In this document: one piece after another, positions 9,640 through 64,000 of the stretch
How the letters are laid out: each line of letters begins with the position of its first letter
Numbering within the stretch: the first letter of the stretch is position 1
DNA from: Eledone cirrhosa
Lineage: Eukaryota
NCBI GenBank assembly: GCA_964016885.1
Contig: OZ024740.1
Location: forward strand, 66,216,001-66,280,000
Direction: 5' to 3'
Length of the DNA stretch: 64,000 nt
Notes under the pieces: generated by a model
Told to the model about the DNA's origin: nothing
What the model saw: the letters and a program-made list of their open reading frames with translations, nothing else
The model's database searches: none
Position numbers and translations under genes: made by a program

Positions 9640-10432
9640 ACCGATATTGTTATGCTTTGGGAGTGTGATGTTGCCAATAAGAAACACACGCACCAGTTGC
9701 TTTTACTTCAATTTATTATGAATTAAATTTATAAATTTAGGAATTTATAAATTTCCGGTTGGTTGATTCCACAACCAGACGATTGTTCATATATTGTCAA
9801 CGTTCTTTCGTCACACATTCTGTGACCTATTCAGTGACTGGGATTATTTTCTTTGTTTTTGTGCCTCTCCTTTGTTCTGTCCTACGCCATCTTGTTTTTG
9901 TGTTATGTGCTTAGTTTGCGCATGTGTTACATCCGGGTGTATGTGTGTGTTTATATTTGTTTATTTATTTGTTTATTTACATGTTACTGGATGGTTGTTT
10001 GTTTTATGTGTGTGTGTGTTTTCATTTTGTCTTTAATTGAAGTTGTGATGTTGCTGTTCCATTCATGTTTTCTATTTAATTTTGGTTGGAGTTCATATAT
10101 GTTTATTGCCTCTCTCATTTGTCTAAACATTGCGTCTTTTCTGTGTGTAGATTAGATTTTTATTTCTATGTTCTCTAATTTACCCTTATGTTCTATTTTA
10201 GCATGTTGGTGGAGTACAAATGATTCTTTACTATCTTGAAGCTCTCGCCAGTGTTCATTTATCCGTTCCCCTATACCTCGAACTGTCTCACCTATGTACA
10301 CTATATTCTTATATCTACATTGTCCTTCAGTATATCTTATGCTATATAATACATTTCTAGTTTTACAGTTAATATGGGGACTTAGCTTACAGATTATAGA
10401 TTTCTTATCTATAGAGGGAGGTATTTGAAAAG
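9640..10432 (-). mobile_element. Penelope-like element 3' fragment (GIY-YIG plus terminal repeat)
   Basis: NVLYSIRY...VYIGET..IGERINEH. Same family as 62621-64000. Decayed HHR at 9796-9838 (minus). Confidence 0.85.
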
Positions 10433-10838: not shown

Positions 10839-13800
10839 CTACCTAAACTACCCGTCCTTTGGACGGTTCCAGTAGCTTTCCACGTAGTTCATTAAACTAA
10901 ACAAAATAAATTTGATACATAGAAGAAAAACGTACTTTATGTAAACATGAAAACCTTCGGCACTATTCCAGCGAAATAATTAATATCTTAGCTCGGTGTC
11001 ATCCGTTATCCCATGTAGCAACAGAAATCCAGTCTAGGTATAAATTGTTTTGACAACAGTAAAAGCGCATCATGAAATAGAGAAGTGAAGTGAATAATAG
11101 ACACTATTGTGTACATAGGTTGGAATAACAATATAGATTGAACATAACAGGGGGGAACTGATGGATGAGCAAATCGTTATAAAAAGAGGTGGATGTTGGG
11201 TGGGAGAACTCATTGTCTTTTGGATTATTGAAGAGCAGATTTATACACAGCATTTTTGGTTTTCCCATCAGGAGCTTAAATAAATAGGTTGTCAGGATTA
11301 CCAATTCGAGAATAGCCGACGAAAACTGTCCACGTGAAAAGAAATGGGTTTGAAGATCCCGACCAACAACTTTAAGAGATTGGCCTTGAGATGTATTTAT
11401 GGTCATTGCAAAACTATGCTTTAGTGGGAATTGTAACCTTTTCATGGGAAATGGACAATCAGAAGGGGTAAAAGGAAGTTGGGAATAAAGACAGATTCAT
11501 TTCGCCCGGGTCCTGTGATTATTTCTGCCATAATTACAAGGTTCATCAGTTGCTTTACCGCCAGTCTTGTTCCATTACAAAGAAAGGGGGGAGGGGTTAA
11601 ATTACGTAACAGGATAACAGGAGCTCCAACTTTTAGATACAACTCGTGAGGAGGTAGTCCTGGAGGATCCTGAGAGTTAAGAAACTCTGATGGTGAGCTG
11701 GTCACTTGATCAAAGTCTGTAACAGTGTCAACTGACTTGTAACAAGGTTGAATAGAGGGCAACTGACCAACTATTTCGTGATTGATCAGCTTAACAGCAG
11801 CATTTGTGGGTGCAAGGATAGCCCTCTCACAAAGCCAATCAGGATTCATGAATTCAGTTGAAAGATTTGGATAAACTGAAGAACATAAGTCATCCGGCGT
11901 TGAGACTGAGCGGCCAATGCTAGAAGTGTCAATTTATCCATTGTCGTCGACTGAAATTGACCATCACCGATTTGGAGGCGTTGAGTGGAAAATGGCGTAG
12001 ACGGACGACCAGTTTGTAATAGCGATCGTATATTAATTATTAGTTTTTGTACCTCAACAAACTGCCAAAAAGCGGACATTTTAAGCAGGCGACCACTTCA
12101 TCAGCAGGTGATCCATTTGGTACCACGGGAAGTGTCTGTCTAAAATCACCTGCGAGAAGAAGAGTGGCTTCTCCAAAGATCTTTCATTGTGGCATCTAGT
12201 GCCTGAAGAGAGCCTTTATGGGACATGGTTGCCTCATCCCACACAATCAGTTTACAGCTTATCAACAGAGCAGTTTCGTCAGAACTCTGTGAGATATTGC
12301 AGATGGGATTCTCTTGATGGACGACGTTCAGTGGCAGCTTGAAGGTCGAGTGTGCTGTGCGCCCACCTTCTAAAAGAGTCGAAGCTATACCGGAAGAGGC
12401 AGCAGCAAGTGCTATGTCGCCATTCTGCCTTACCTTAGTAAGAATAAGATTAAGCAGAAATGTTTTACCGGTCCCTCCAGGTGCATCTATGAAGATAATC
12501 CCGCCAGTATTGCTGTATACCTTGTTTAGAACGGATTTGTATGCAGATTCTTGATCCGGATTAAGGAGAGGCTGGTTGACAGCTTAGTATTGACGAAGGA
12601 TGGTTTTGTCGTAGCTGGTTTCTCTAAGGATGAGTCGATTAAAAGTGTGCTCTTGGTTTCTATCCGGAGAAGGGAGGCAGTATGCCTCCAAACATTGTCC
12701 TCCTATTGCCACAACTAAGTCCTCCAAGATAGTTAGACCAGCTTTATACATAGAGAGGGTAAAAGCAGTGGTGGAATTGTTGGTAGCTTGACAGGTTTGA
12801 AGCCATATATCGTGGCACATGTGGTCCCTGTATTTATTCCACAACAAAGTCGAGTTAACAAAGCTGCAGAAACCAGCATAATGGCGAATAGATGCCGAAG
12901 TTTTGACGGAGATCCACGGAGAGACGCTTCCTCAAGTGTACTCTCATAATGGTTTTCCCTATCAACGAGTCCCCGTTTAAAGCAGGCGTGCTTGAATGTC
13001 TTGCATAATTGAGCGTCTACTGTGCAAAGGGCTGCAAAGGATGTTGGTCCACGTACAACGTGAAGCAGCAGTCAAAGATGGAAGCATTAGAAGTTCAAAG
13101 GATGAACAGTATAGACGCGTCCTATTGTGTCACTTTCTAAAATGGCAGGATCTGAATCGATATGTCGGCCCTGTTTTCTTCTTTGCCATAAGCAAGTTGA
13201 GTGGTTCCAAGAATAATAATGAGGAACATCAACACACAGAAGAGTTTTTGTGTAGGAGTCAACCGTACAGAGTTCGAAAAATGCAGTCAAAGTTGTCCTA
13301 CGTGGGGCAAGAACCTGTTGACGTAAGTTTTCTTCAGTGAAGTAAACTCTCTGCTTGTCCTTTAAGTGAATACTGAGATGTTGAGCAGGGGGGAATCGCT
13401 CGTGTATAGGGAAACCAAACGTGCTCCAAATGGCCTCATTGGTTGAGATATAACGCCCTATTTGAAACAGTTCCACCTCATCTGTTGGTGCAGCTGCTGT
13501 TCCTGTTTGTGCCACCTGAAAGACGGCTCTGTCGGATCCCTTATTGACGTATTTGCAGACGTAACGTATAGATTTAACTGAGATACAATATTCAATATTA
13601 ATATGCGCATTAAATGTCTCGCATAGCATTTTGTTATGTGGAACAACCCATTGATTGTCAATTGTAAATTCTCGGTTAGATCCATGTTTGATTGTTGCTG
13701 TGAAACCGCCATGTCCAGGAGCTCTTCTGCGATATAATGGGTAACCGTCGTTACCTGTGATCGTCTCAGCCAAAAGCTTTCGTGGATATTTCTTAGTGCA

Positions 13801-16491
13801 TTTTCCGTTTGCTATGCACGAAGACGAAGAATTAAAGTGCCAACATGGCCCATGAACCATATTTTTTCGAATGATTTCGTACAACGGGGGTCTTCATTGG
13901 GATTTGGAAATTCTGCACTTATGACTGTGTCCACGTTAGAAGGTCGAATTTTGCTTTGAAACCAGAGTAAGTTGTGGGCGTGAGGTAGACCATGTTTTTG
14001 CCATTCAACAGTATACATAAAACATTTGATCGGCCCGAAAAGTTCACCACATTTAAACAAATCAATCATTTTACGAACTTTAAGAAGAAAAACGCGAGCA
14101 GTGATGTCATGGCGATGTGCTGGTCGTTGGCCCGGAAGTAAGCTTATTTCGATGTCCTCCTATTTGGGGTTGCATGTGAACGTTATGAAAAGGTCAGGGC
14201 GGTTGTAAAGACGAAGGTATGTGAGAGCGTCCTGCATCTTTTCATGCATATACCTCGGGCCGCCTGTATATGATGATGGCAGTATGATTCGAAGACCAAC
14301 CTCAGAAGCAGTTACATTGTCATTGCTATTAACCTCGTCTCGAACCTTGGCATATTCATCTGCACGGAGCTGCTTTTGATTATGGCGAATCCAAAGAAAT
14401 CGTTCCGAGTCAATCTGCAAAGGCAAGGAATGGGATGGTTATGCAAAGATTTTAATAAAAAGTATAGGTAACATGACTGAAAGGGGAGTAAATCATACCT
14501 TAGCATACATATCCACACAATACTGATTCAGAAGAGCCCCTGCTCTTTGAAGACTGTTGAAATTGTTCGTTCTAACCATCAATCTGTAACTGTAGAAGTT
14601 CATCTGGGAAACCATTTTTGGAGGCTGTGCTGTTTGGTGTGTCGTAGGTACAATGGTAGCGATATCAGGACTGTACCCATCCTCTCCATAGGAAAAGAGT
14701 AAGGGGTATTGAAGGGCGTCATAGACTGGATTTAATTCATTGATCCTCTTAACACGGGAGTCCTGCCACTCTAGAAAGATATCTCTTTTGGAAAGAGTTG
14801 CATTGGGATTGCAAAGCAAAATAGCAATCTCCTCTGTTTCGGATCGGTTGTAACAGCGGTTATATTCCCCAACAGGAGTCCTGTCACTTCTAATAACAAC
14901 GTTAAAGTTGGCATTGTCTGCCGCCGTCGTTGAATAGCTGTTTTAAATTGGTTAATATACAGGTTGTGCTCATGAAGCATTTCCTGAAGAGGTCCAAGAA
15001 CAGCCGTGTATGTGCCTGGAGCAACAGCAGCCTTACGTGCAATTTGCTCCCTCTCTTGTCCCATGAAGTATATCTGAAGAAAATTATGATGAGAAACATC
15101 TGTTGGTAGAAGAGAACCGATTAAATGGTACGTCTGTCCCTGAAATGGTAAAAGTGGGATTAAAGTTTCCATAAGATATGGGTTTATGACCAAAACTTGT
15201 CATTTGAAATGCAGAATTGTATGCCCTTATTCGGTTCATGAAATCTTGAGAATATGGATGCTCACCAAGCAGAAGGGACTTTAAAGGATGTGGAGTTTCA
15301 GGGCTGTTGGGCTGACAAACCTTTCCATTTGAGCAGCATAGACCACCAAGCTCTCCCGGCCAAATTAGTGATTTACAGTGTAGACAGATTTTGAACATAC
15401 GACCAATGGCAAAATCTTTGTGGTCAGCATAATTTTCAGAGGGGTCATAATGAAAGGCTTTAAAAAGCAATCTATTCCTTGTAGGCTTGATGTACCAAGC
15501 AGAACAGCTGTACGATGCGCATTTGTTTGTAATCGAGTAGTTCTTTCAAGCAATGCTTCAGAAGCTATCGCAGCAGTGGTTTGTGCAGTTTTTGCCATAC
15601 GGGCCGCAAGATTTTCTACTGAGTATCGATGTGATGAATGCGAAGTGTTGAGTCTTGCGTTGTAGACAGCTAATGTCGATAACCTATTTGTCCTCTGCTC
15701 CTCAGTTTCATTAGCTCGACGGTGCTTTTCCTTAACCACCCAGGTCGACAATCTGCTGAGGCAACTACTTTTTTTCCTCGAGGCATCGAAACGAAATGTG
15801 TAAAGTAGACACGATATAACACAATCGAATAAAAATAAAGATTAATTGTAAAATGTATTTGAAGTACATGTAGCGGTAGAACGTTGGAAATGTACAGGGT
15901 ATGTAAGTTAATAATTAAATTATGTGTCAGAAACGTAGTCTAATCAATGCGAAAAAATAGAATAATTCTAAGTCTTTGATGTATAAACCATCACCCTTTA
16001 GATAAATTTAAGCATAATATTGTAAAACTTATGAGAACAGTTATAAGATCAGTTAATATGAATATCAAGCTTGAAACGAGAAATTATACAATGTCAAATC
16101 TATAACTTAACTTAGTAATCTGTTAGAAATTGCTGGTTGTGAAATATACGAAATTATATTATTATCTTTGTTTCAAGTAGAATAGTAAATTAAAATACGA
16201 ATGAGCCGAATTACGAAAGATAACTCTTGATTACGAGAGATAACTCTTGTCTTAATTAATTTCGAAAATTCACACACATAACCGACATTTTTTAATGTCT
16301 CCAAAGGCCCCCATATCGATGTTTGAAAGCCTTTGTAGATCATGTACAGGTTTTGTGCACAGAGACGCTCTGTAAACAATTTCAAAGAAATCGCATGAAT
16401 GGTTTAGAAGATATGAACCGTCATTAAAATACGTCGACACACATATATACATACATACAGAAATTTACATACAGATTTATATATATACAGA
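10839..16491 (-). mobile_element. Helitron, full length, non-functional
   Basis: 5' A|TC at 16491. 3' hairpin ccgtcc-aaa-ggacgg (10852-10866) followed by GTAG|T (canonical CTAG). Internal RepHel. Confidence 0.85.
11225..15786 (-). pseudogene. Helitron Rep (HUH)-Pif1 helicase, multiple frameshifts and stops
   Basis: PDLFITFTCNP, EWQKHGLPHAH, YVCKYVNKG, Walker A DAPGGTGK (about 12460-12487), LCNGTRL, AMTINTSQGQS. Start MPRGKKS. Confidence 0.93.
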
Positions 16492-16601: not shown

Positions 16602-17854
16602 CGTGTGCGTGTGTGCGTGTGTGTGTGATTTTTGCTCCCTGAAACATCACACTAATAGTAAAATATTTCAGGTGATGATAAATTAAATGTCAAAATGAAA
16701 AATTAAAAATAGTGATGTCATTTATTTTTTGTTTAAATACTTTGCAGTAACGAGTATATAATTAAGTGTTAGGTCTCTGAGGAGCAAAACCCTTGAATCT
16801 AGCATCTTATGGAATTTTTCAAATCAAATGCATCTTTCTTTTGTAACCTGCGAATACAATGCTTGAGAAACAAAATTATCGTTACTGAATTATCGTTATT
16901 AAATTATAGCCGAAGTTGATTTCTTAATACTATATCAACGAGTGACCTGTCTTATCAGTGAGCAACCAAGTGATGATTATAAGCCCAGATGTTTATTTGC
17001 ACTTTTACCAAAAAAACCCCAGATAATTGATTATCTTCAGTTAAGACCTGTGCAGAATCTGACAAATAAAATAGTGTTTTAACATAAGTTTTTAAATTGC
17101 CAATATAATGAAAAATTAAATTGCCAATATAATTCAATTATTGGCTGGTAATAGCAAATACTTTCTGGTGACGAAATTCTGTTAATAGTCTCTTTTAGCT
17201 TAGACGAACAACTGAAAAAGGTTTTGAAGGGATTACTAGTATTTATGAGGTCTCGTTTCCTAGCATGTCTTGTTATTTTTCATCTTATTTGTCTCACTCC
17301 AACCTCATTCGACACTTTCTGTTTATTTTTTTCTACTTGATACCCTCTATATATAGAAATATGAACTAAATATTCGAGGTATACTCTAAATATATACAAC
17401 GCAGATTTAAGCGAAATAGCTTAAATGTGTATATAAAATATATATATATATATATATTAGAAAGATCGAGTATCGAAAAATCGGCGCACGAGTTCACGAT
17501 AAACAAAATTCGAAATGAGCGGCAGAGGGCTCAATAATTCAGATGAATCAGAGCTATAACTATCGTTAAAATACCGTCACATATAGAACAAGTCTACAAT
17601 CAACCATACGATAAAAAATAGATAATAGAAGATTCGGGACAAACAGATAAAAAATATCAATAAAACAATACATCAATAATTTAAATGAATGTAAAATCAT
17701 ACCCGGACCCGCTAGAAAGGTGTTAAATCTAGCTTCATGGGTTTCTGTAAATCCTTAGACTGTACTCTATCAGCTCACATATAAATATAAAAGCCTATAT
17801 ATATATATATATATATATATTATTATTATGTAATAAACAACATAAGGCAATTAT

Positions 17855-17912
17855 TCCATTTACCAGTGGTTTCTTAAAAGCAAAAGGTTTTGCTTTCAAT
17901 CCTCAGAATGAA
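17855..17912 (-). ncRNA. Type I hammerhead ribozyme, intact (family D)
   Basis: ttcatt-CTGAGGA-ttgaaagcaaaa cc ttttgcttttaa-GAA ACC act GGT-A-aatgga. All three stems pair, GUA triplet. Confidence 0.8.
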
Positions 17913-18114
17913 AAATCCTGGTTTGTTTATTGAATATGGATTCTAAAAACAAAAATGCAATCTATATGAAAGTGAGGCTGGAAAAGGGAGAAGGAAAGGA
18001 AAAATAAAATAAAATAAAACTACACATGCAAACACACACAAAAAAACACAAAAGAATACTTACACACACACACATATATACACATATAATTTGCACGCAT
18101 ACACATATACACAT

Positions 18115-18129
<15 letters not shown>

Positions 18130-18172
<43 letters not shown>

Positions 18173-18231
18173 AGCGTACACCTACACACACATACACATA
18201 TATACACACATATACACATACATATATTCAT

Positions 18232-18280
<49 letters not shown>

Positions 18281-18314
18281 TACACACACACATATATATA
18301 CACAAGTACATATC

Positions 18315-18350
<36 letters not shown>

Positions 18351-19105
18351 CATATACACACATATACACATATACATACACACACACACACACACACACA
18401 TGTGTGTGTACAAGCCTACACATACACACACACATATATATACACACACATATACATACATTCACACAAACATACAACGTACATACATACACATACATGA
18501 ATGCACTCCACTACATATTAACACACGCAAATAAATATAAGAAAAAAATATATAAATAATATTAACAAATATTTGACAGCGATACATGCCCCAGCTAACA
18601 GGACAGACACGCGTGGTAAGTAATACACACATAAGCACATATACATACGTTCGAAATAGTAAACACATACACACACTCTCACACATAAATATACATATAC
18701 AAATACATAAACACGTACATACACATACATACGCAAACACGTACAGGTATACAATATAAACACACACATGTATATGTAATTATATACACACACACACACA
18801 TATACATATATATATGTATATATATATATATACATACAAAAATATAAAAATATAAACGCACACATACATATAAATACGTAAACACACATATACATACATA
18901 GCTAAACAATTATACACATGCAAATACGTATATATCAAAAGAACGCACAACCAAATACAAACACACACACATATATACACACACACACACCCACACACAA
19001 ACACACACATACATAAAAATAAATAAAAACACACGCAACATATACATACATACACATACATATACATATATGCATATATACATATACATATATATATATA
19101 TACAC

Positions 19106-19138
<33 letters not shown>

Positions 19139-19713
19139 TACACGTACACATACACACATGCATACACATACACACACACATATACATGTGTGTATGTGTA
19201 AAGCTCAGTATTAGATAAGACAAATGAACCTTACATAAACGTATATATAGTAGTAAAGTAATAAAGCCATACAAGGCAATTAATCCATTCACCAGAGGTT
19301 TCTTAAAAGCAAAAAAAAACAGAAAAGTATAGGATTTTGCTAAACTTGAGAGACACTTCCGCTTGCCTTAACTCTAAGACTGAGATCTTCAGATGCTGTC
19401 CTCATCTGAAATCGCATCTGATCTGTAACTGGATTGACACTCCTACGATAAATCAACCGCCTTGAACTCCTTCTCTGCTCTTTACTTTTGCTACGGCTTT
19501 TATTTTGCTGCTTCTACCTTCTGTACTCTTGTATTTAAAAACATTTTTTCTCCCCTACCTCCCCTTATATTTTTACCTCCTCTTAGCCCCCCCCATATAT
19601 TCTTTTTGTTTTGCCCTTCACATACCTATGTGTATGTGTATGTATATATATGTGTATGTATGTATGTATATGTATGTATGTGTATATATGTGTATGTATA
19701 TATGTCTGTATAT

Positions 19714-19768
<55 letters not shown>

Positions 19769-20055
19769 CGTGTCTGTATGTGTGTATATATTTGTATATT
19801 TGTGTGTGTATATGTATGTATATGTGGATAAACCAGGGCTTTTTTTCATTCTGAAGATTGAAGGAAACTTTTTTTGCTTTTAAGAAACCTCTGGTGAATG
19901 GATTAATTGCCTTGTATGGCTTTATTACTTTACTACTATATATACGTTTATGTAAGGTTCATTTGTATTATCTAATACTGAGCTTTACACATACACACAT
20001 GTATATGTGTGTGTGTATGTGTATGCATGTGTGTATGTGTACGTGTATGTGTGTG

Positions 20056-20088
<33 letters not shown>

Positions 20089-20357
20089 GTGTATATATAT
20101 ATATGTATATGTATATATGTATATATGTATATGTATGTGTATGTATGTATATGTTGCGTGTGTTTTTATTTATTTTTATGTATGTGTGGGTTTGTGTGTG
20201 GGTGTGTGTGTGTGTATATATGTGTGTGTGTTTGTATTTGGTTGTGCGTTCTTTTGATATATACGTATTTGCATGTGTATAATTGTTTAGCTATGTATGT
20301 ATATGTGTGTTTACGTATTTATATGTGTGTGTGCGTTTATATTTTTATATTTTTGTA

Positions 20358-20390
<33 letters not shown>

Positions 20391-20773
20391 GTATATGTGT
20401 GTGTGTGTGTATATAATTACATATACATGTGTGTGTTTATATTGTATACGTGTACGTGTTTGCGTATGTATGTGTATGTACGTGTTTATGTATTTGTATA
20501 TGTATATTTATGTGTGAGAGTGTGTGTATGTGTTTACTATTTCGAACGTATGTATATGTGCTTATGTGTGTATTACTTACCACGCGTGTCTGTCCTGTTA
20601 GCTGGGGCATGTATCGCTGTCAAATATTTGTTAATATTATTTATATATGTTTTTCTTATATTTATTTGCGTGTGTTAATATGTAGTGGAGTGCATTCATG
20701 TATGTGTATGTATGTACGTTGTATGTTTGTGTGAATGTATGTATATGTGTGTGTATATATATGTGTGTGTGTA

Positions 20774-20819
<46 letters not shown>

Positions 20820-20875
20820 AATATATGTATGTGTATATGTGTGTATATATGTGTATGTGTGTGTAGGTGTACGCT

Positions 20876-20880
<5 letters not shown>
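18130..20880. mobile_element. Large microsatellite-rich foldback element carrying family D HHRs
   Basis: About 18130-19318 is the reverse complement of about 19868-20880, including unique islands such as gatacatgccccagctaacaggacagacacgcgtgg. Confidence 0.75.
19845..19902 (+). ncRNA. Type I hammerhead ribozyme (family D) with GUG triplet, probably inactive
   Basis: ttcatt-CTGAAGA-ttgaag...cttttaa-GAAACC tct GGT-G-aatgga. An inverted half-copy lies at 19285-19318. Confidence 0.65.
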
Positions 20881-20941
<61 letters not shown>

Positions 20942-20944
20942 CTG

Positions 20945-21045
20945 CGATATAAAAGACACAGAAGCGAAAAGCGAAAACCAACCAAACAGTGAGTGTGTTC
21001 TGTTATTAATTCTGGCAATATTACACAAATATGACCCTCCCGAAG
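20945..21045 (-). repeat. Short Penelope terminal-repeat-like fragment, second copy at 27117-27212
   Basis: About 90 bp near-identical between the two copies. Contains gggagggtcat..ttgcca..aacacac, as also seen at 62632 and 9658. Confidence 0.6.
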
Positions 21046-21141
21046 TATAACTATATATATATATATATAAAGGACGTAAAATAAGAAAATATTTTTAAAA
21101 AAAATTTTTTTTTTCTTAATTTTTTACTTACTTAAATTTTC

Positions 21142-21223
21142 ACTCCAACTAATTAGTTTCTGCAATGGGATAAAGACAGTTACGTAATCCAACTGTCGAG
21201 AATTCATTGCGTCATCAGGGAGT
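21142..21223 (-). ncRNA. Minimal type I hammerhead ribozyme (family B)
   Basis: Reverse complement of 22128-22209. Confidence 0.75.
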
Positions 21224-22127
21224 CTATTCTCAGTTAAGTCTCCAGGCAATGCGCGGACACTGGCGGCTCATATAAAAATAATAATAATTCGGTAGATCGA
21301 ACAGCTTGCGAGGACTGGATTCTATGTAACGAAATTCTCACTGCTTCAAGTCAAATGGCCGATTCTAAAGGATCAATCACGTGACACAGAGGCTAGTTAG
21401 AAGGAATGGGATGGTAAGATGACTGACGCCTACTAACACCCCAAAAAAAATTTTTTTAGAAGTGGTTTTGGCAAGTTTGCTCGACAAATCAGTGATTTGG
21501 AGATAAATATAGATAATTTAATATATCAACTAACATAAGCGCACAGATGCACGCCGATGCTAGCAAATACACAGGTTATGTCATAGTACCTATGTGGTTC
21601 AATGCAGGAGAATGCAGAACAATAATATAAAGGACGTAAAATAAGAAAATATTTAAAAAAAAAAAAATTTTTTTTAAATTATTTTACTTACTTAAATTTT
21701 CACTCCAACTAATTAGTTTCTGCAATGGGATAAAGACAGTTACGTAATCCAACTGTCGAGAATTCATTGCGTCATCATGTGTATTTGCTAGCATGGGCGT
21801 GCATCTGTGCGCTTATGTTAGTTGATATATTAAATTATCTATATTTATCTCCAAATCACTGATTTGTCGAGCAAACTTGCCAAAACCACTTCTAAAAAAA
21901 TTTTTTTTGGGGTGTTAGTAGGCGTCAGTCATCTTACCATCCCATTCCTTCTAACTAGCCTCTGTGTCACGTGATTGATTCTTTAGTATCGGCCATTTGA
22001 CTTGAAGCAGTGAGAATTTCGGTACATAGAATCCAGTCCTCGCAAGCTGTTCGATCTACCGAATTATTATTATTTTTATATGAGCCGCCAGTGTCCGCGC
22101 ATTGCCTGGAGACTTAACTGAGAATAG

Positions 22128-22209
22128 ACTCCCTGATGACGCAATGAATTCTCGACAGTTGGATTACGTAACTGTCTTTATCCCATTGCAGAAACTAATT
22201 AGTTGGAGT
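22128..22209 (+). ncRNA. Minimal type I hammerhead ribozyme (family B)
   Basis: actcc-CTGATGA-c gcaatg...cattgc a-GAAAC taatta GT-T-ggagt. Palindromic stem III region AACTAATTAGTT. Extra hairpin gacagtt/aactgtc in loop II. Confidence 0.78.
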
Positions 22210-22409
22210 GAAAATTTAAGTAAGTAAAAAATTTTTTTTAAAAAATTTAAAAAAAAAATTCTTTTAAAAAATATTTTCTTATTTTACGTCCTTTATATTA
22301 TTGTTCTACATTCTCCTGCATTGAACCACCTAGGTACTATGACATAACCTGTGTATTTGCTAGCATGGGCGTGCATCTGTGCGCTTATGTTAGTTGATAT
22401 ATTAAATTA

Positions 22410-22453
<44 letters not shown>

Positions 22454-24155: not shown

Positions 24156-24791
24156 AAGGTTTTCACCGTATTTCTTTACTAAAGAAATTTTAGCCAGATA
24201 GTGCCGTTTAGAACCCTCAGAGAAATGGAAAAAGATGAGTATTGACGTACATGGGAGTCGAACCCACATCTTTGGTTACCAGACTACTGTCCTACCATTA
24301 CACCAACACATCACCCATCTCCTTCCATTCAAATTAGAAGCTACATAGTTATCAAGTATGATGACAAGTAAGTATGTTTTGAAACAGCGAGCAAGTTTGA
24401 AATTAGAAAATAGAAGCTTTCACGGTATTTTTTTTACTAAAGAAATGTTAGCCTGATAGTGGGGTTTAGAACCCTCAGAGAAATGGAAAAAGATGAGTAT
24501 TGACGTGCATGGGAGTGGAACCCACATCTTGGGTTATCCAGAGCACTGTGCTACTATTATACCAACACATCGCCCTTCTCTTTCCATTCAAATTAGAAGC
24601 TACATTCTTAGCAAGTTAGTATGTTTTGAAACAGCGAGCAAGTTTGAAATTAGAAAATAGAAGCTTTCACCGTATTTCTTTACTAAAGAAATGTTAGCCT
24701 GATAGTGGGTAACATTTATTTAGTCAGACAATACGGTGAAAGCTCCTATTTTCTAATTTCAAACCTGCTCGCTGTTTCAAAACATACTTAC
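24146..24791 (-). repeat. Tandem array (about 250-bp units, 2.2 copies plus terminal inversion) containing tRNA-derived heads
   Basis: Units start at 24146, 24403 and 24650. 24710-24791 is inverted. tRNA-like segments at about 24243-24313 and 24501-24572 have A box TGGTGTAATGG and B box GGTTCGACTCC, but the anticodon arm does not pair. Confidence 0.75.
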
Positions 24792-26707: not shown

Positions 26708-26715
26708 TATATCTG

Positions 26716-27010
26716 TCACGTGATTGATTCTTTTTGAATTTGCCACAGACGTAGAGGCAGTGATTTTCTCAATGGCTAGGATTTCAGTCCACGCTTCGCT
26801 ATTTCCTCTCCACTGAATTATTTTTTTAATAACTTTGCAGAGTCCTCGCTATGCCTGGAAACTTACATGAAAAAAGACTTTCCTAACGACGGAATGTTCT
26901 TCGGAAAATATATTTACTCCATTCCAGAAAGTAATTAGTTGGAAGTGATATTTTAGTAAGTAAGTCAATTTTATAATTTTTTTATAATTTTATAATTTTC
27001 TTATCTTACG

Positions 27011-27016
<6 letters not shown>
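26716..27016 (+). mobile_element. Diverged family B fragment with decayed HHR (26877-26946)
   Basis: Collinear with 21968-22290. CTAACGA-c ggaatg...cattcc a-GAAAG taatta GTT-ggaag. Confidence 0.7.
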
Positions 27017-27076
<60 letters not shown>

Positions 27077-27216
27077 CGGCGATGAATTAGTTTAGCGAGG
27101 TTTAGTAAGTTAGATTACCGATATAAAAGACAGCGAGAAGCGAAAACCAACCAAACAGTGAGTGTGTTCTGTTATTAATTCTGGCAATATTACACAAATA
27201 TGACCCTCCCCCCAAG

Positions 27217-27556: not shown

Positions 27557-27625
27557 GAACTGAGGATCCGCTAGGGTGAAACAATTGTTCTTGGTATGGT
27601 GAACTAACTGTTGTGCGTCCACTTC
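27557..27625 (+). ncRNA. HHR-like fragment (family F), decayed inverted copy at 28008-28075
   Basis: CTGAGGA-tcc gctag ggt-GAAAC aatt GTT with palindrome AACAATTGTT. The 5' strand of stem I is lost at the (TA)n junction. Confidence 0.5.
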
Positions 27626-39800: not shown

Positions 39801-39806
<6 letters not shown>

Positions 39807-40482
39807 CGTAAAATAAGAAAATTATAAAATTAACTTACTTACTAAAAGTTCACTCCCAACTGATTAGTTTCTGAAAGGGAATAAACATACTTTCCGAAGA
39901 AGTGTACAGAGAAGCCTTTCGTCATCGGGGAAGTCTATTCTCAGCTAAGTTTCCAGGCAATACGTGGACACTGGGAACTTATACAAAAATAATTCAGTGG
40001 ATAGAAAAAAGCAAAGCGTGGACTACATTCCTAGCCATTGATAAAATCTCTGCCTACTGCGTCGGTGGCAAATTCAAAAGAATCAATCACGTGACATCGA
40101 GGTCAATCAGTGGAAATTGGTTTGTTAAGAAGACAGCAGCCTGACTGTTACCATAGCAGCAGTCTTGGCCAATTTTGCTCGACAAATAATTTGGAGATAA
40201 TTATAAAGAATTAGTATATCTAGTAACATGATGACGAAAGGCTTCTCTGTACACTTCTTCGGAAAGTATGTTTATTCCCTTTCTGAAACTAATCAGTTGG
40301 GAGTGAAATTTTAGTAAGTAAGTTAATTGTATAATTTTCTTATTTTACGTCTCTCATATTATTGTTCGGCAACTCCATGCATTGAACCACAAAGTTACTA
40401 AGACAAAACCTATATATTTGCTAGCATAAGTATGCATCTGTGTGTATATATATGTTACTAGATATACTAATTCTTTATATAT
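39801..40482. mobile_element. Family B relative with inversion; HHR at 39852-39934 (minus) and 5'-clipped HHR at 40229-40304 (plus)
   Basis: Collinear with 21069-21530. 40229-40355 is the reverse complement of 39801-39927. Stem II is gaaagg/cctttc. Confidence 0.82.
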
Positions 40483-40485
40483 ATT

Positions 40486-40543
<58 letters not shown>

Positions 40544-40582
40544 AGAGTATTGAAGTTTGCTTGAAGCATTGTGGAATAATAA

Positions 40583-43500
40583 GGTAGATTTCTTTAAGTC
40601 GTTTGGAAGCCTCGACAATGCAGATGGGTAAATCTCCGGGTAACAAGATCCGGTGGTGGAGAGAGAGATGTAAGTGGATGTACGTTGAGATGCGTGGGTG
40701 TATAAGAGTGTAGCGTGTAGAGGAATGAAGGGAAGAGCGTAAAGGATAAAAATAAAATTAAAAATAACACGAGAAAAAGTTCCCTTAGGAGAGATTTAAT
40801 TGTCCATATATATTTCGGATTCACATCCATCAACTGGTGGTTTTTAAGGGAGGAGGGGGGAGGGGGGTCTGTCGGAAAGATGCGAAACGTGTCCTCCGCT
40901 GTTCGTTGTTTTGAATATCTGAGGTATTCAGCAGAGCGTGCGTGCGTGTGAAATTAGGTCGATCAGGCAGAGGTCAGCAGCCGAAGTAGTTCATTCAATT
41001 GTGGGAGTGGCGTGGTGCTAGCTGTCAGTCCATTCTCTGCCTGTTTGGTTAATGTTACTGTGTGTGTGCGTGTGTTGTTGTCTCGCTTGAGTGTGGGTGT
41101 GTGTGCGTGTGTGTGTTGCCTTATTCCTCTGTATTGGCAGTGTAGTATGTTCGTATGGTGGAATGCTACTGAGTGTGTGTGTCCGTGTGTTGCTGTCTCG
41201 CTTGTGTGTGTGTGCGTGTGTTGCTGCATCGTTTGTTAACTTAAACGAACCACCTCATTTCGCTTCTCTCGGATCGGTTGTTTAATTGTGGCCATAGCCG
41301 TTTCATCTAACGTGCTTCCTTGATACGTAACGTGCCGACGTTTCTTTCTGTCGCTAAAATTGTGATAATGGGCCTTCCGTCTTTGTTTCCGCATTTGGCT
41401 ATGTGTTTCCAGAAAGACGAGGCCCTGGTGTTAGTGTGTTCCTTGATCCGGATGTGCAACGGCCGGATTGTGCTACCTATATAGTATTGGTTGCACTTGT
41501 TACATTCTATCTTATACACGGCGTATGTGCGTAGGCAACAGTTCGCATGGCGCATCGGGCAGTATCTGAGGGAGCACGCGTCAGTAGATTTCCCGGGTTT
41601 CCTGGAGAGGCATCTTCGCAGGGAAGGGCCCGAATGGGCCAGGTGGATGTCGAGGCCCTCTCTCCGTATAGCCTTGCGAATAGCGTTGGTGGTATTCTCG
41701 CCCAGGTGTGGCATTTTAAGGAAGCACTTGCCTTGGGTGCCTCTCTGTCTCTGTGTCTGTGAGCGAGGTAGAGTAGCCGTTCGTCTCCAGCACCTCGAGG
41801 AATCACTTGGTATGAGTGGCAGCACTCGCGCCCGATCGCTGCATCTGTTTTTGATTCGCGCGATCTCGTTCGTGATGTATCCTCTTTTGGCACTGTTAGG
41901 GAGGGCGGACTTGTAGTGGACGAAGAGGTCCCTGCAGGCTGCCTTTCGGCAGAAGTTGCAGTGGATTCCTCCCTGTTCCCTGATGTTGATTCGGAAGTCG
42001 AGGAGGGCAAGTGACCCGTCGTCGTTGGGATGTTCAACACTGAAGTCAATGTTCTCGTCCGTGTTGTTGAACGTCTCATAGATTCTGTTCGCCATGTCTT
42101 GGGAAGATGTCCACGTACCTTGAGAAAATGGCGACGGCGTTGGGTTGGCAAGCGTTGAGTGCCTTCGCTCGAGGCTGTCCATGTAAGAGATCGCTAGCAC
42201 ACCCGACAGGCTTGATCCCATGGGCAGTCCCGAGGTTTGTTGGTATGTTTGATCAAGGAATCCGAAGTAGGTGTTGACGACGATGGATAGGAGTCGGTGG
42301 ATGTCAGCGGTGGTTAGCCCAAAGCAGTGTAGGTCGGTGGATTGGACGCGTTCCATCAATATATTGATGGCCGGGAGTGCCGGGAGTGCCTGGACCGAGG
42401 TGTAGAGAGCGACTACATCAAGGCTGAAGGCATATCTGTTATTTTTTCTGGTGTCGGGATTCATTTGATGCAGACGCTTCAACACTTCCTCGGAGCTGTT
42501 AACGTCTCCCGGCAAGGTGTCTAAGATGGGTTTGAATATTCTGGCTAGGAGCCATGACATTTTGTAGAGTTGTCCTTCCACGCTCAATACAATGGGCCTG
42601 ATCTTCAGGTCGTGTCCCTGTTTGTGTGTTTTCACGAGGTGGTAGAAGGCGGGTAGTCTGCTGTCCCTCGTGAGGAGGTTGTATCTCAGCTTCTTCGGGA
42701 GCTTCCGCCGGTCGCAGATGTTGGTCCAGGCGGCGTTGATGTGCTCTTCTATCTGCGCTGGAGTGATTCCCGTGACCTTGGAGTAGAGGTTGTCATCGTC
42801 CAGGTGTTGGAGGGCCAGGGTGTTGTAGGCCTCTCTACTGATGACGCAGAATTTTTTTCCCTTGTAGGAGGGGGGTAGATGAGATTCTTCGATTTTAGGT
42901 TGGAAACAGTGGTGAGTTGAGATTTGGTGAGGTTATGTGTTGTGCGTGTGTGTGTGTGTTTGTGAAGTATATCCGAGATGGAGTGTTTTAGCCTGATGAG
43001 TTTAGTGTCGAGTTCGTAGTTGGTGGGTGGGGGTGGAGTGGGTTGTCGGGGTGGTAAGTGGGGAACTTGGGGTGGGTTGCGTTGGTGCTGTTATTTTCTG
43101 TAGCGGTGTTGATGTCGGTCACCCATTTAAGTTGGTAAGCGGCTCGGCAAAAGTTGGCCTCGATGTTGCGTTTCAGTCTGTCGTCGAGTCGTTGTGAGAC
43201 GATGAACTTGGGTCCGAGGTGTAGGAGTTTCAGCTCGTCGCTCGTGAGAGTGCCGGTTTGGTCGGTGACCTTGTGCGTCGCATCGTTGAGGTGTGGCTCG
43301 GTTTTGGTGGATTCGGCGGTGGCGGTTGTTACGTTGTTGTTTTCCACGTGGTTCTGGTCCGTCAGTTCGTTAGTGTCGATGTTCTCGTTGTGGAATTTAG
43401 ACAAGATCCACTCATATTTCCGCTTGAGCCGTTTTTTCTCGTATTGGACTCTAGGGTTGTAGCACTGGTCGATTGCTTTAGTGATTTTCAGGAGCAAGTC

Positions 43501-44441
43501 GCCGGGTGTTATTGACAGTCGATGTATCCGCTCTGAGAGTGTCCGCTTCAAGGTGTCCGGATTAAGGAACACACTAACACCAGGACCTCGTCTTTCCGGA
43601 AACACATAGCCAAATGCGGAAACAAAGACGGAAGGCCCATTGTCACAATTCTAGCGACAGAAAGAAACGTCGGAATGTTACGTATCAAGGAAGCACTTTG
43701 GATCAAACGCCTAGGGCCACAATTAAACAACCGATCCGAGTGAAGCGAAATTAGGTGGTTGGTTTAAGTTAACAAACGAGGCAGCAACACACGCACACAC
43801 ACACACACAAACAGTAGCACTCCACCATACGAACATACTACACTGCCAATACAGAGGAACAAGGCAACAACACAGGCACACACACACACACTCACTCAAT
43901 CGAGACAACAGCACACGCACACACACATACACACACACACTCAAGCGAGACAACAACACACGCACACACACACACAATAACATTCACCAAACAGGCAGAG
44001 AATGGACTGACAGCAAGCGCCACCCCACTCCCACAATTAAAAGAACTACTTCGGCCGCTGACCTCTGCTTGGCCGACCCCATTTCACGCGTTAACACGCT
44101 CTGCTGAATACCTCAGATATTCAAAACAACGAACAGCGGAGGACACGTTTCACACCTTTCCGACAGACCCCCTCCCCCCGGAAAAAACCCAGTTGATATA
44201 TGAATCCGAAATATATAGGGACAATTAAATCTCTCCCAAGGTAACTTTTTCTCGTGTTATTTTTATTTTTATTTTTATCCTTTACGCTCTTCCCTTCATT
44301 CCTCTACACGCTACACTCTTATACACCCACGAATCTTAACGTACACCCACTTACATCTCTCTCTCCACCACCGGATCTTGTTACCCGGAGATTTACCCAT
44401 CTGCATTGTCGAGGCTTCCAAACGACTTAAAGAAATTTACC
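40583..44441 (-). mobile_element. Penelope-like retroelement with inverted pseudo-LTR
   Basis: 43548-44441 is an inverted copy of about 40583-41460 (end of the GIY-YIG domain plus 3' region). Confidence 0.92.
41307..43547 (-). pseudogene. Penelope RT plus GIY-YIG endonuclease, frameshifted
   Basis: LHLGPKF, KTHK...RPIV, FSLDVVALYT, YQQTSGLPMGSSLSG, VYKIECNKCNQYYIGST.RPL..RIKEH. The YxDD region is deleted. Confidence 0.92.
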
Positions 44442-44531
44442 ATATATATATATATATGAATATATATATTAATATTAATATATTAACAATTGTAATAAAT
44501 GGAAAATATCACTATAGCTATTATATTTACT

Positions 44532-52830: not shown

Positions 52831-53091
52831 AATATATATATATATATATTATTAAAATAATATATATATATATATGTATATGTAGATAATATATATATAT
52901 GTAGATAAATTTACCAAAATGTACGGTAGTGTCCAATCCGTATGAAGAACTCAATGTAATCCGAACATCATGAAAAGAGAAGATGTATTCAAACATTTTT
53001 TTTCCGATGAAAAATACAGGAAAACAGAGTCAAGATAAATTAATAAAAATAATGAATAAAAACAAAGAAACAGTTCCTTATATTAAAAAAT

Positions 53092-53223
53092 TCATCATTT
53101 TACGATCGTTTCTAGGATGTTTGTGTTGGTATGTTTATCATACAGATCTATGTAAAATGTTTACAAACTATCAGAGGGAATATACATACCTACACATATA
53201 TATGCTGTCTTCAGAAATAATGA
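53092..53223 (-). ncRNA. Type I hammerhead ribozyme with long stem II, downstream of the 54-kb GIY-YIG fragment
   Basis: cattattt-CTGAAGA-cagcat...(about 95 nt hairpin)...atccta-GAAAC gatc GT-A-aaatgatg. 8-bp stem I, palindrome ACGATCGT. Confidence 0.78.
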
Positions 53224-53968
53224 TATTTGTTTATTGAAAAAAACCAACAAAGATTTAATATAATAGGTCTGTTTTGGGAACAGGTTTTGAATTGACCAAT
53301 ATAAAGGTAGTGTGTGGTCAAGATGGTAGAATAGTAGTAATAGAACTTTAATTTAGGGGTAGAGGAAAGCAGATTTCAGTTTTGAATGGAAAGAGTTCGA
53401 TGAATGAAAAGATTATTTTAGGAATGAAAATAGGTCAAGTCGGTAAAAGGTACACGAAGAATTGATGTTATAAAAGAATAATACTAATGTAAATATCTAA
53501 GGAGAATGAAATTTTACGATAAATGTGTTAGTGAAAAATATCAATCTTATTTAAAATATAGGGAGTTTAATTCTATAAAAAGAAAATAAATTAATTAAAT
53601 TGATAGGTATATTTATAATGATACATTTATATTAATTCATATAGATATTATAAATAAGAGTTAGATGTAATTGCAGAGTGCTGTTAAAAACGAAGGGAAA
53701 ATAAAATAATAATAAATATTATTATTATTGGGGGGGGGGGGGGGTTGTAAATTTAATAGTGAGAAATAACAAATTTATATAGATTATAAGGAACATAGAA
53801 TCATAACCTGAAATTAAAATAATTTATATACATACTTATTGGTATAAATTTTAGGAAAACATAGCTGTAAAAGGGAAATAAAATTATGCAGTTCATTAGT
53901 AGTAGAATATTAATTATAGGTTTACTAATTTTAAAAAAGTGTTATTATCATAATTTCTAAAGTGTATA

Positions 53969-54526
53969 TTAATTAGGTTTATAATATTTAAAAGTTCTTC
54001 TCAGTTTATGATTACATGATATAATTAATTCCTGTCGTTTATTTAATAGGATATCCTTAGATTTCATTATTTCAAAAAGTTCCTGGGAACATTCATATCT
54101 ATTATTTTGATAAGGGGTGGCCCTTTTGAGCACACTCCAGGTCAGGTTATAATCTATATTCCGCTTTCTATAATTTTTAATTATTTCAGCTAAAGATGTC
54201 GTATTAGCTAATGCGGCATTTTTAAAACTGTGTTTGTGGATATTAAATCTTACTTTAAATTGGTTAGAAGTAGCTCCTATATATGAATAAGTTGAGTCCT
54301 TAGTGTTAACTTTACATTTATATACTATGTTATTAATAAGGCAATTTCCTTTTAATGGGCAATTTGCTTTGTTTCTACAGTTACAACCTTTCGTGAATGC
54401 TGTATCAGAGGAGATAGTCAAATTAGGTGTGGAATTTTTACAACTTGTTGTATGTGAATGAGATGGTGGTTTGCTGTGGTTTATTTTAGTATTATGGTTA
54501 GTTTGATGTATTGGTGGTATATTCAT
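53969..54526 (-). mobile_element. Penelope-like GIY-YIG endonuclease fragment
   Basis: CNCRNKANCPLKGNCLINNIVYKCKV...YIGATSNQFKVRFNIH...LLNKRQELIISCNH. Confidence 0.87.
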
Positions 54527-54573
54527 GGGTTTTTTACACGTATATGCATTATAGGCACTTATATTTTGTGGTA

Positions 54574-54780
54574 TATTTTTGGTCGCCGTGCCGGTGACAA
54601 ATTGTCATCCGTTTGTTCAACACTGACATTGAGAGTCAATCAACAATCAACATGTTTTTTGGTCATTAGCGTTCAACATATTGATAGTGGTCTGCAATCC
54701 TGATGATGACCCAGAAACATGTTGATTGTTCCTCAATGCCACTTTTGAACAAACGAATGAGTATTTGTCATCGGCACGGC
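54574..54780. mobile_element. 207-bp foldback element carrying a tiny HHR
   Basis: 54574-54631 is the reverse complement of 54731-54780. An inverted decayed HHR half lies at about 54641-54670. Confidence 0.75.
54694..54729 (+). ncRNA. 36-nt minimal hammerhead ribozyme
   Basis: gcaatc-CTGATGA-tg acc ca-GAAAC at GT-T-gattgt. Palindrome AACATGTT. Confidence 0.72.
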
Positions 54781-62620: not shown

Positions 62621-64000
62621 TGTTATACTTTGGGAGGGTCATGTTGCCAATAAGAAACACACGCACCAGTTGCTTTCACTTCAATTTATTATATATTTAT
62701 AAATTTATAAATTTACAAATTTACAAACTTATAAATTTCTGGTTGGTTGGTTGGTTCTACAACCAGATAATTGTTTATATATAGTCATAGTCCCTTCGTC
62801 ACACACTCTGTGACCTCTTCAGTGACTGGGGATTCCTTTCTTCGTTTCTGTGCCTTTCCTTTCTTCTATCCTACGCCATTTTGTTTCTGTGTGTGTGTTG
62901 TGTGCTCAGTTTGCGCATGCGCCACATCCGGGTGTCTGTGTGTGTTTGTGTTCATTTATCTATTTGTTTATTTATTCATTTATTTATTGTTGGTTGGTTG
63001 TTTGTTCTATGTGTGCGTGTGTTTTCATTTTGTCCTTATTTGTAAGTTGTGATGTTGCTGTTCCACTCATATTCTCTATTTAATTTTGGTTTTAATTCTT
63101 TTATGCTTACTGCCTCTGTAATTTGCCTAAACATTGCGTCTTTTCTGTGTGTGGATTCTATTTTTATTTCTATGCTCTCTAATCTACCCCTGTGTTCTAT
63201 CTTAGCATGTTGGTAGAGCACAGATGATTCTTTATTATCTTGGAGGTCTCGCCAGTGTTCATTTATTCGTTCCCCTATACTACGAGCTGTCTCACCTATG
63301 TACACTATATTTTTGTTTCTACATTGTCCTTCAGTACATCTTATGCTATACACTACATTTCTAGTTTTACAGTTAATATGTGGGCTTATTTTACAGGTTA
63401 TACATTTCTTATCTATACATGAGGGTCTTTGGAACGGGTATGTCTTGCTAATAAGTGTTTTTACGGAGGTACCAGGTCTTTCTACTATCTTAATATTGAG
63501 ATTATGTTTATTTAGGGCCCTTCTAAATGTGTAAGCTAGTTCGCCTCTAGGGGTTGTATTGATGAACATTACACTCTGGTATTTATTGCTATCATACCAT
63601 GAGTTTATTCTATTGGCCTTGTTCCTAGTTCTTTCTATTCTATTCCAAAATGTGCTCCTATACAAGAGGCAGGTCCCATTTATGTCATTATTTACCATTT
63701 TTTCCATTTGGTTCTGGCTCCTTTATACACTCTGATTCTATCTCTCTGATTGTAGCCAGAGAACTGCATACGGTGGACGAAGTGTTGTATGTGTCTCTCT
63801 AGTTCTTCGGGGTTGCACATGCGGGACACATTTCTCATCACCCGTACCAAATCCGCAATCAGTATGTTGATTTTGGTATGATCCGAAATGGCCGAGTTTC
63901 GGTGGATCAGATGTTTGGAAGTCATGGGTTTGGCATAATGGGAATGGAGGATTTGTTTTTGGTTGTTAATGGTATCTAACCAGAGCTCTGTGTCTAGTAC
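62621..64000 (-). mobile_element. Penelope-like element (RT C-terminus plus GIY-YIG plus terminal repeat), runs off the window
   Basis: HSHYAKPMTS..IHRNSA, NVVYSIRC...VYIGETARSIGERINEH...QITEAVSI...PKLN. One frameshift at about 63700. Confidence 0.9.
62784..62826 (-). ncRNA. Hammerhead-like motif in a Penelope 3' repeat
   Basis: gtca-CTGAAGA-g gtcac agagtgt gtgac-GAAG g ga c TA-tgac. The sister copy at 9796-9838 has GAAA. Confidence 0.55.

Follow-up and report, generated by a model that had tools for sequence, protein, structure and literature searches.

What kind of element lies at positions 21069-22412 of the window (the whole stretch of 64,000 nt of Eledone cirrhosa DNA analyzed here), and how did it come to be there in two orientations? 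The locus consists of two head-to-head arms of a single repeat unit, which we call family B, flanked by (TA)n runs (Table 1), in a host genome of 3.0 Gb that is rich in microsatellites. By its testable features, as far as these can be read in sequence, family B is a non-LTR retrozyme family mobilized in Penelope fashion. Our preferred reading, to which we assign a probability of about 0.7, is that the locus is a young non-LTR retrozyme insertion made in (TA)n by the reverse transcriptase-endonuclease (RT-EN) of a Penelope-like element (PLE), which probably copied a monomer-length RNA circle. Two other identities were rejected: that of an autonomous PLE, because the unit has no RT/EN ORF, and that of a two-polarity viroid-like RNA, because the motif is present in one polarity of the unit.

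The locus, its family and its hammerhead motif

When the unit is numbered from the predicted hammerhead cut site, the left arm (minus strand) runs from 502 through one full unit to ~94, and the right arm (plus strand) from 146 to ~216. An earlier note on this DNA had described near-identical copies of a ~560-bp monomer in a tandem-plus-inverted array, and this description is borne out. The two arms have periods of 560 nt (21069 to 21629) and 572 nt (21778 to 22350), an A/T tract accounting for the difference, and they differ by four mismatches in 427 aligned nt. The fold-back duplex is shorter than the ~600 bp that had been proposed, its maximum being 517 nt in one register and 279 nt in the other. 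No stop-to-stop frame of at least 150 aa overlaps 21069-22412, no ORF for a telomerase-like RT with GIY-YIG was found among frames of this size in the retrozyme unit, and there is no LTR layout in the window locus or in family B arrays.

Table 1. Positions in the window of the features discussed in the text; hammerhead parts are predicted.
Feature	Position	Strand	Remarks
(TA)n run adjoining end A	21051-21068	none	
Left arm	21069-21777	-	3' end at site A (21069), full unit 21147-21706, 5'-truncated piece 21707-21777
Second intact hammerhead motif	21142-21231	-	core 21218, predicted cut between 21147 and 21146
Third, truncated hammerhead	21707-21777	-	keeps helix II, helix III and cut site
Right arm	21778-22412	+	5' truncation at unit position 146; via ribozyme to 3' end, site B
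Type I hammerhead motif	22120-22209	+	predicted cut after 22204 (GUU)
Pseudoknot strand	22120-22125	+	loop partner 22148-22153
Helix I	22128-22132/22205-22209	+	
Hammerhead core	22133-22139	+	CTGATGA
C.A mismatch, base of helix II	22140/22190	+	
Helix II	22141-22146/22184-22189	+	upper hairpin 22154-22176
Helix III	22193-22204	+	AACTAATTAGTT, perfect palindrome
"Tail" between priming sites A and B	22296-22412	+	116-122 nt, two conserved hairpins
(TA)n run adjoining end B	22413-22450	none	
Older relative	26714-27016	+	single arm ending at site A, core CTAACGA (broken), ~68% identical
Older relative	39801-40484	-	two arms: end A 39801, end B near 40484; 66-79% identical
PLE, RT and GIY-YIG frames	40542-44445	-	inverted terminal repeat ~900 nt, 37-40 nt tail at one end
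PLE end, Zn-finger-like linker and GIY-YIG frame	52900-54604	-	
Member of young PLE family	62621-63722	-	homologue at 9648-10430; minimal hammerhead, ~57-nt tail

Each arm has one intact CTGATGA core, at -21218 and +22133. Hammerhead motifs thus occur on both strands of the locus, as had been claimed, but this is because the arms are inverted: a descriptor scan of the window finds the unit's motifs only at these two positions, which is the unit's own sense. The copy at 21707-21777 lacks C3 and the 5' strand of helix I, which were lost at the inversion junction. With no arm that has two intact cores, the locus lacks the two consecutive complete ribozymes that serve as the criterion for an active retrozyme copy in the accessible text of bioRxiv 10.64898/2026.07.22.740005, and that are present at loci L052, L061 and L050. 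It is therefore probably a daughter insertion rather than a source of circles, and a read-through transcript would bury its hammerhead motif in duplex. In calling the array the window's best candidate for an active retrozyme-like family, the earlier note overstated what a locus with a single intact core in each arm has to offer; what stands is that the family is very young and that its helix II covaries. The note made no mention of three features discussed below, namely the two-end rule of Penelope type, the pseudoknot and the targeting of (TA)n.

Family B arrays span 1-13 units and are dispersed over many contigs, in (TA)n. A 501-nt query gave at least 178 matches in the genome, from 39 scored of 1,407 candidate places. 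Outside A/T tracts, 238 segments compared with the column majority show 413 variants in 78,915 sites (0.52%), and family B is therefore very young. Its median period is 560 nt. Older subfamilies, of which the relatives at 26716 and 39801 are members, have units of ~520-545 nt, and identity among 14 sampled monomers, older subfamilies included, is 70-99%. The stem II pairs that had been quoted as compensatory in these two relatives are real, but both cores are broken, that of the 39801-40484 relative reading CCGATGA. Searching for this helix III together with a helix II of reduced length gave 30 matches, mostly apparent deletion derivatives of the family, and no separate element. At ~325-340 of the unit (window 21966-21980) there is a TGTCACGTGATTG block with a CACGTG palindrome, retained in most subfamilies, which may possibly be an internal promoter element. 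A string in family B resembling a Pol III B box was rejected, as it is not conserved.

As for the hammerhead motif, 9,743 sites in the genome are exact matches to a pattern that starts at the core and extends to helix III, versus none for the reversed control, and the motif is therefore not due to chance. Rfam reports no hammerhead at gathering thresholds over the window, only a tRNA-like match elsewhere. Across 41 diverse sequences, the core varies at N7 only and helix III is invariant, both being partly fixed by the extraction pattern. Helix III is indeed the perfect palindrome described earlier. The ribozyme cannot be called minimal, however, since its helix II is long (6 bp, an internal loop and a hairpin of 6-7 bp). 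The named structure has 95.4% of its cells paired, versus at most 53% in slid controls, and 94 cells with double changes, a number equaled in 0/500 shuffles. In helix II, one position shows four pair types and a second shows two, and all pairs of the upper hairpin covary (6/6). Covariation, to which the earlier note had looked for support, is thus clear at the level of cells, but pair-level counts lie within the shuffles, both for pairs with double changes (9; 71/500) and for pair types (27; 395/500).

Upstream of helix I on its 5' side, GAGAA is predicted to form a pseudoknot with TTCTC in the internal loop of helix II. A change from G-C to A-U in 6/41 rows is probably a single event within the family; some rows of the underlying tree extend across inversion junctions, and only its five clean A-U rows were considered. 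A pattern with both pseudoknot strands and a core without the extra C of family B, run as a prediction test, gave 1,485 matches versus 5 and revealed divergent families. The sixth pair of the pseudoknot, left unconstrained in the pattern, is complementary in 29/30 loci (G-C 13, U-A 9, A-U 7). In the wider set, helix III is palindromic in 22/27 called cases, with mainly three different sequences. The divergent, ORF-less families that share the pseudoknot of family B (L237-L266, e.g., L237, L238, L249 and L258) have helix III palindromes of C/G sequence, and their ends lie ~115-120 nt apart. In a metagenome scan with the pseudoknot pattern, 0/80 loci (of 116 matches) had a full hammerhead.

The pseudoknot recalls those of Perreault et al. 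2011 (PMC3088659), in which a helix of 5-6 bp likewise joins the helix I side to helix II. According to the accessible text of that paper, ~40% of hammerheads are predicted to be pseudoknotted, and the pseudoknot is required for fast cleavage where tested. In family B, an animal repeat whose helix III is of dimer type, the predicted partner is instead an internal loop of an extended helix II. With modeled energies of -10.8 kcal/mol for the helix III self-dimer and +1.5 for the hairpin, the palindrome favors the self-dimer, which makes dimer-type cleavage via helix III plausible. Activity may nevertheless be low or modest, given the C.A where the canonical G10.1-C11.1 is expected and the GUU triplet. 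Among Xenopus retrozyme dimers, 8/9 tested gave no cleavage (bioRxiv 10.64898/2026.07.22.740005).

Two 3' ends, the tail and Penelope-like elements

We assembled a family B set of 38 loci (37 fetched plus the window), from which L031, a duplicated partial array interrupted by another repeat, was excluded as a segmental duplicate of L032. There are 24 two-armed and 14 single-armed loci, and array 3' ends adjoin (TA)n. Wherever both ends of a two-armed locus are visible (21/21), the two 3' ends fall one at site A (~94) and one at site B (~216). For the three unfinished two-armed loci, the missing end was predicted beforehand, and 3/3 matched the A+B rule. Among 98 further loci, mostly of older subfamilies, 23/23 callable two-armed insertions are also A+B, 21 by script and two, scripted as A+A, by reassignment on inspection. 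The rule therefore covers 47/47 callable two-armed insertions. Single arms end at A in six cases and at B in eight. The hairpins of the tail between the two sites show double changes in 5/27 pairs (30 sequences), and the interval is, on our reading, the footprint of a Penelope "tail."

Insertions of PLEs carry partial tandems, an inverted 5'-truncated copy and, often at one end, a tail of 30-40 nt (PMC8557442), and on AT-rich DNA the purified Poseidon PLE protein both nicks and extends the two strands, starting at two internal RNA sites that delimit the tail (PMC11167929). Since family B resides in (TA)n and its arms end at two fixed sites, it was likely pasted by a Penelope-type enzyme, and we infer that a PLE enzyme is responsible for the insertions. 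Its likeness to EN+ PLEs and their pLTR hammerheads (PMC8557442, PMC11167929, PMC4209133) extends from these partial tandems, inverted truncated copies and one-end tails to microsatellite targets, two RT starts downstream of the ribozyme, a palindromic helix III and a helix II of 6-8 bp whose 5' end bears an odd base. Unlike EN+ PLEs, family B has no ORF, has a tail of 116-122 nt rather than 30-40 (PMC8557442) and has no homologous autonomous pLTR among three families. It also uses one site per arm, whereas the start sites of the Poseidon protein in vitro are the same for both strands (PMC11167929); strict A/B pairing is therefore an addition to what has been described.

The window itself holds members of three PLE families (at 41307, 53969 and 63036), one very young and two older, all of which end in (TA)n at two sites. 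We presume their RT and EN labels from motifs and from what is generally known of PLEs; Pfam gives weak GIY-YIG matches in 2/5 window frames and no match of any kind in two longer ORFs. The best 150 matches of the young family are 98-100% identical in aa, with open frames of >1,000 aa. The element at 52900-54604, which we take to be Neptune-like, has a terminal repeat with a hammerhead motif (helix II of ~100 nt) and a 135-nt tail, and its tail motif has 8,159 genomic matches. No hammerhead was found in the 40542-44445 PLE. It is the 53969 family that comes closest to family B in layout, with a C.A under a long helix II, a palindromic helix III and end A 65 nt past the cut; the similarity of its tail to family B is no better than that of shuffles (276/500). 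A 20-nt look-alike shared by this tail and a divergent retrozyme tail is not above shuffles in 5/6 tails (4/500 in one), and was therefore rejected as proof of homology. In a search for an autonomous partner that covered these three families, in a genome that holds many more, we found no DNA similarity to the unit beyond family copies in the flanks. EN matches near family loci are apparently separate insertions, as judged by position and strand.

A relative of the young PLE at 63036 has left short 3' stubs at 20941-21050 (+) and 27119-27216 (+), where they share (TA)n runs with the locus and with the 26716 relative, respectively. PLE stubs nested in the (TA)n runs of the family are common among the fetched loci.

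Template of the insertions and rival explanations

Site B carries a further signature. Where the template has (CT)2 there, 9/9 terminal copies show (CT)5-16 followed by (TA)n, whereas 9/9 internal (CT)2 copies, eight of them at the same loci as the expanded ends, are unexpanded (Fisher p 4e-5). With single-CT templates, 44/44 ends are unexpanded. Site B ends of family B gained one unit in 3/29 cases, and a PLE family ending in ..CTACA has (CA)n at 4/36 ends. We read the terminal CT expansion as the probable product of reiterative copying, or stutter, at priming; the rival explanation is slippage after insertion, beside (TA)n.

The units of an insertion resemble each other more than those of other insertions. 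In 144 segments of the 38 loci, with homopolymer zones masked, the mean distance is 0.0040 within the same arm, 0.0025 between opposite arms and 0.0071 between loci, and the within-locus distance of 0.0036 compares with 0.0070 ± 0.0004 when permuted (minimum 0.0057 in 2,000 permutations). Derived markers are held in common in 318/324 same-arm, 49/58 opposite-arm and 1,551/16,479 between-locus comparisons. Of the shared variants, 40 are fixed in every segment that covers them at a locus and 10 are partial, the latter in six loci that include L052, L032, L036, L062 and L035; singletons number 78 per 69,200 sites. All cut-site junctions of family B are seamless (168/168). One haplotype per insertion, in both arms, suggests that the units within an insertion came from rolling reverse transcription of a monomer-length template, and one-step multimers of this kind have been proposed for retrozymes and PLEs (PMC7229834, PMC4209133). 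Some variants at L035, L062 and L050 repeat with a period of two units, as they might if the template were dimeric or if units were duplicated locally.

Our preferred reading would then run as follows. A multi-unit source array would be transcribed, and its hammerheads would cut, probably as dimers formed by the helix III palindrome, braced by the pseudoknot and perhaps aided by protein. The cut monomer would be ligated into a circle. A PLE protein, probably a dimer, would bind the structured tail and nick both strands of (TA)n; one strand would be primed at site A and the other, with stutter, at site B, the template being copied in rolling fashion. The two cDNAs would finally be joined head-to-head, or one arm would be lost. 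A joint and more detailed version, in which the arrays record PLE integration as it runs in vivo and an asymmetric RT-EN dimer imposes obligate A/B pairing on one RNA circle, with telomerase-like stutter on the first template dinucleotides and rolled multimers, the circles coming from a dimer-gated, pseudoknot-braced hammerhead, is tentative, and we would bet against it in its entirety. On that version, the flanking microsatellite would be partly synthesized by stutter and not merely targeted; if the stutter reading is true, the RTs of PLEs help create their own target microsatellites.

The same PLE enzyme might instead have copied an uncut linear multi-unit transcript, with no circle intermediate, the hammerhead being a slow or protein-gated relic for 5' processing or folding. 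This would fit with PAc insertion in vitro, which used unprocessed RNA and for which ribozyme cleavage was dispensable (PMC11167929), with the C.A at the base of helix II and with the partly shared variants at six loci, and a homogeneous source array would likewise yield homogeneous arrays. Copying alone, however, can only make arrays shorter, whereas derived variants are fixed in arms as long as 12 units, and variants from single sampled loci are fixed in both arms (L061, L063 and L068); moreover, the core is invariant but for N7 while the helices covary. The 62 5' ends of family B, which are scattered round the unit, bear on this question in both directions. A weak excess just 3' of the cut (7/62 at positions 1-15, two of them ambiguous, and noticed post hoc) would suit an uncut template, whereas B-arm 5' ends immediately past site A, to be expected if a single linear RNA were twin-primed, are not in excess (13/62 at positions 95-216 versus 13.2 expected). 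On balance, we consider an uncut template unlikely.

It is much less probable still that retroposition delivered single units, which unequal crossing-over or gene conversion then amplified in place as minisatellites, as has been proposed for Xenopus retrozymes (bioRxiv 10.64898/2026.07.22.740005). Although L032 does have adjacent duplicated units, post-insertion mutations are mostly singletons (78 versus 10 partly shared), arrays diverged by only ~0.1% internally are already 7-13 units long, and both arms are often multimeric with ends that are nonetheless exact. Motifs on both strands and a self-complementary array could also bring to mind an assembly artifact, or an endogenized viroid-like RNA replicon that has a ribozyme in each polarity. 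We give these next to no credence: the motif is in one polarity of the unit only, and thousands of dispersed copies obey a common end rule. A DNA run also shows the repeat at thousands of times the flank depth; this run possibly comes from the source sample, and therefore is not independent support.

Known retrozymes and other features of the window

Like family B, metazoan non-LTR retrozymes (PMC7229834; Li et al. 2026, bioRxiv 10.64898/2026.07.22.740005) consist of tandem units that code for no protein and each contain a type I hammerhead; they share its low GC, thousands of dispersed copies, co-occurrence with PLEs and palindromic helix III, and a mismatch at the base of helix II (U.U) is described there in one axolotl family. 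The unit of 520-570 nt is larger than the 170-450 nt given in PMC7229834, and falls inside the 51-972 nt of bioRxiv 10.64898/2026.07.22.740005. Unlike these retrozymes, family B, which is known from sequence alone, has head-to-head arms with strict A+B ends in (TA)n, a long bulged helix II and a predicted pseudoknot; the word "inverted" has 0 occurrences in the main text of PMC7229834 (Cervera and de la Pena 2020). We found no report of a one-of-each end rule or of terminal stutter in retrozymes in the literature searched, and subscription papers and supplements may hold such data. Relative to that literature, the one-of-each end rule, the per-insertion haplotypes, the terminal stutter and the internal-loop pseudoknot are new, while the retrozyme class was already known.

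Two questions are stated as open in PMC7229834 and PMC8557442: by what mechanism non-LTR retrozymes move, and in what way PLEs come to produce insertions that are tandem, inverted and tailed. A family with ~0.5% divergence and thousands of copies offers countable tests: one-of-each ends, a single haplotype per insertion and stutter at termini only. It would further give in vitro PLE assays a natural substrate of 560 nt, and ribozyme assays a hammerhead that joins a predicted pseudoknot to a dimer-type helix III.

Other parts of the window deserve brief mention. Broken frames at 11442-15841 resemble what we take to be Helitron Rep/helicase. At 17830-20940 there is a large inverted repeat (arms 18435-19317 and 19869-20761, 96%) with many CA/TG runs and hammerhead-like motifs at -17906 and +19851. 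A weak tRNA-like Rfam match at 24243-24312 (-), possibly a SINE head, lies within a ~257-nt tandem repeat, and short hammerhead-like cores of other repeat families are found at 27560, 27841, 28412, 34940 and 39611 (+).
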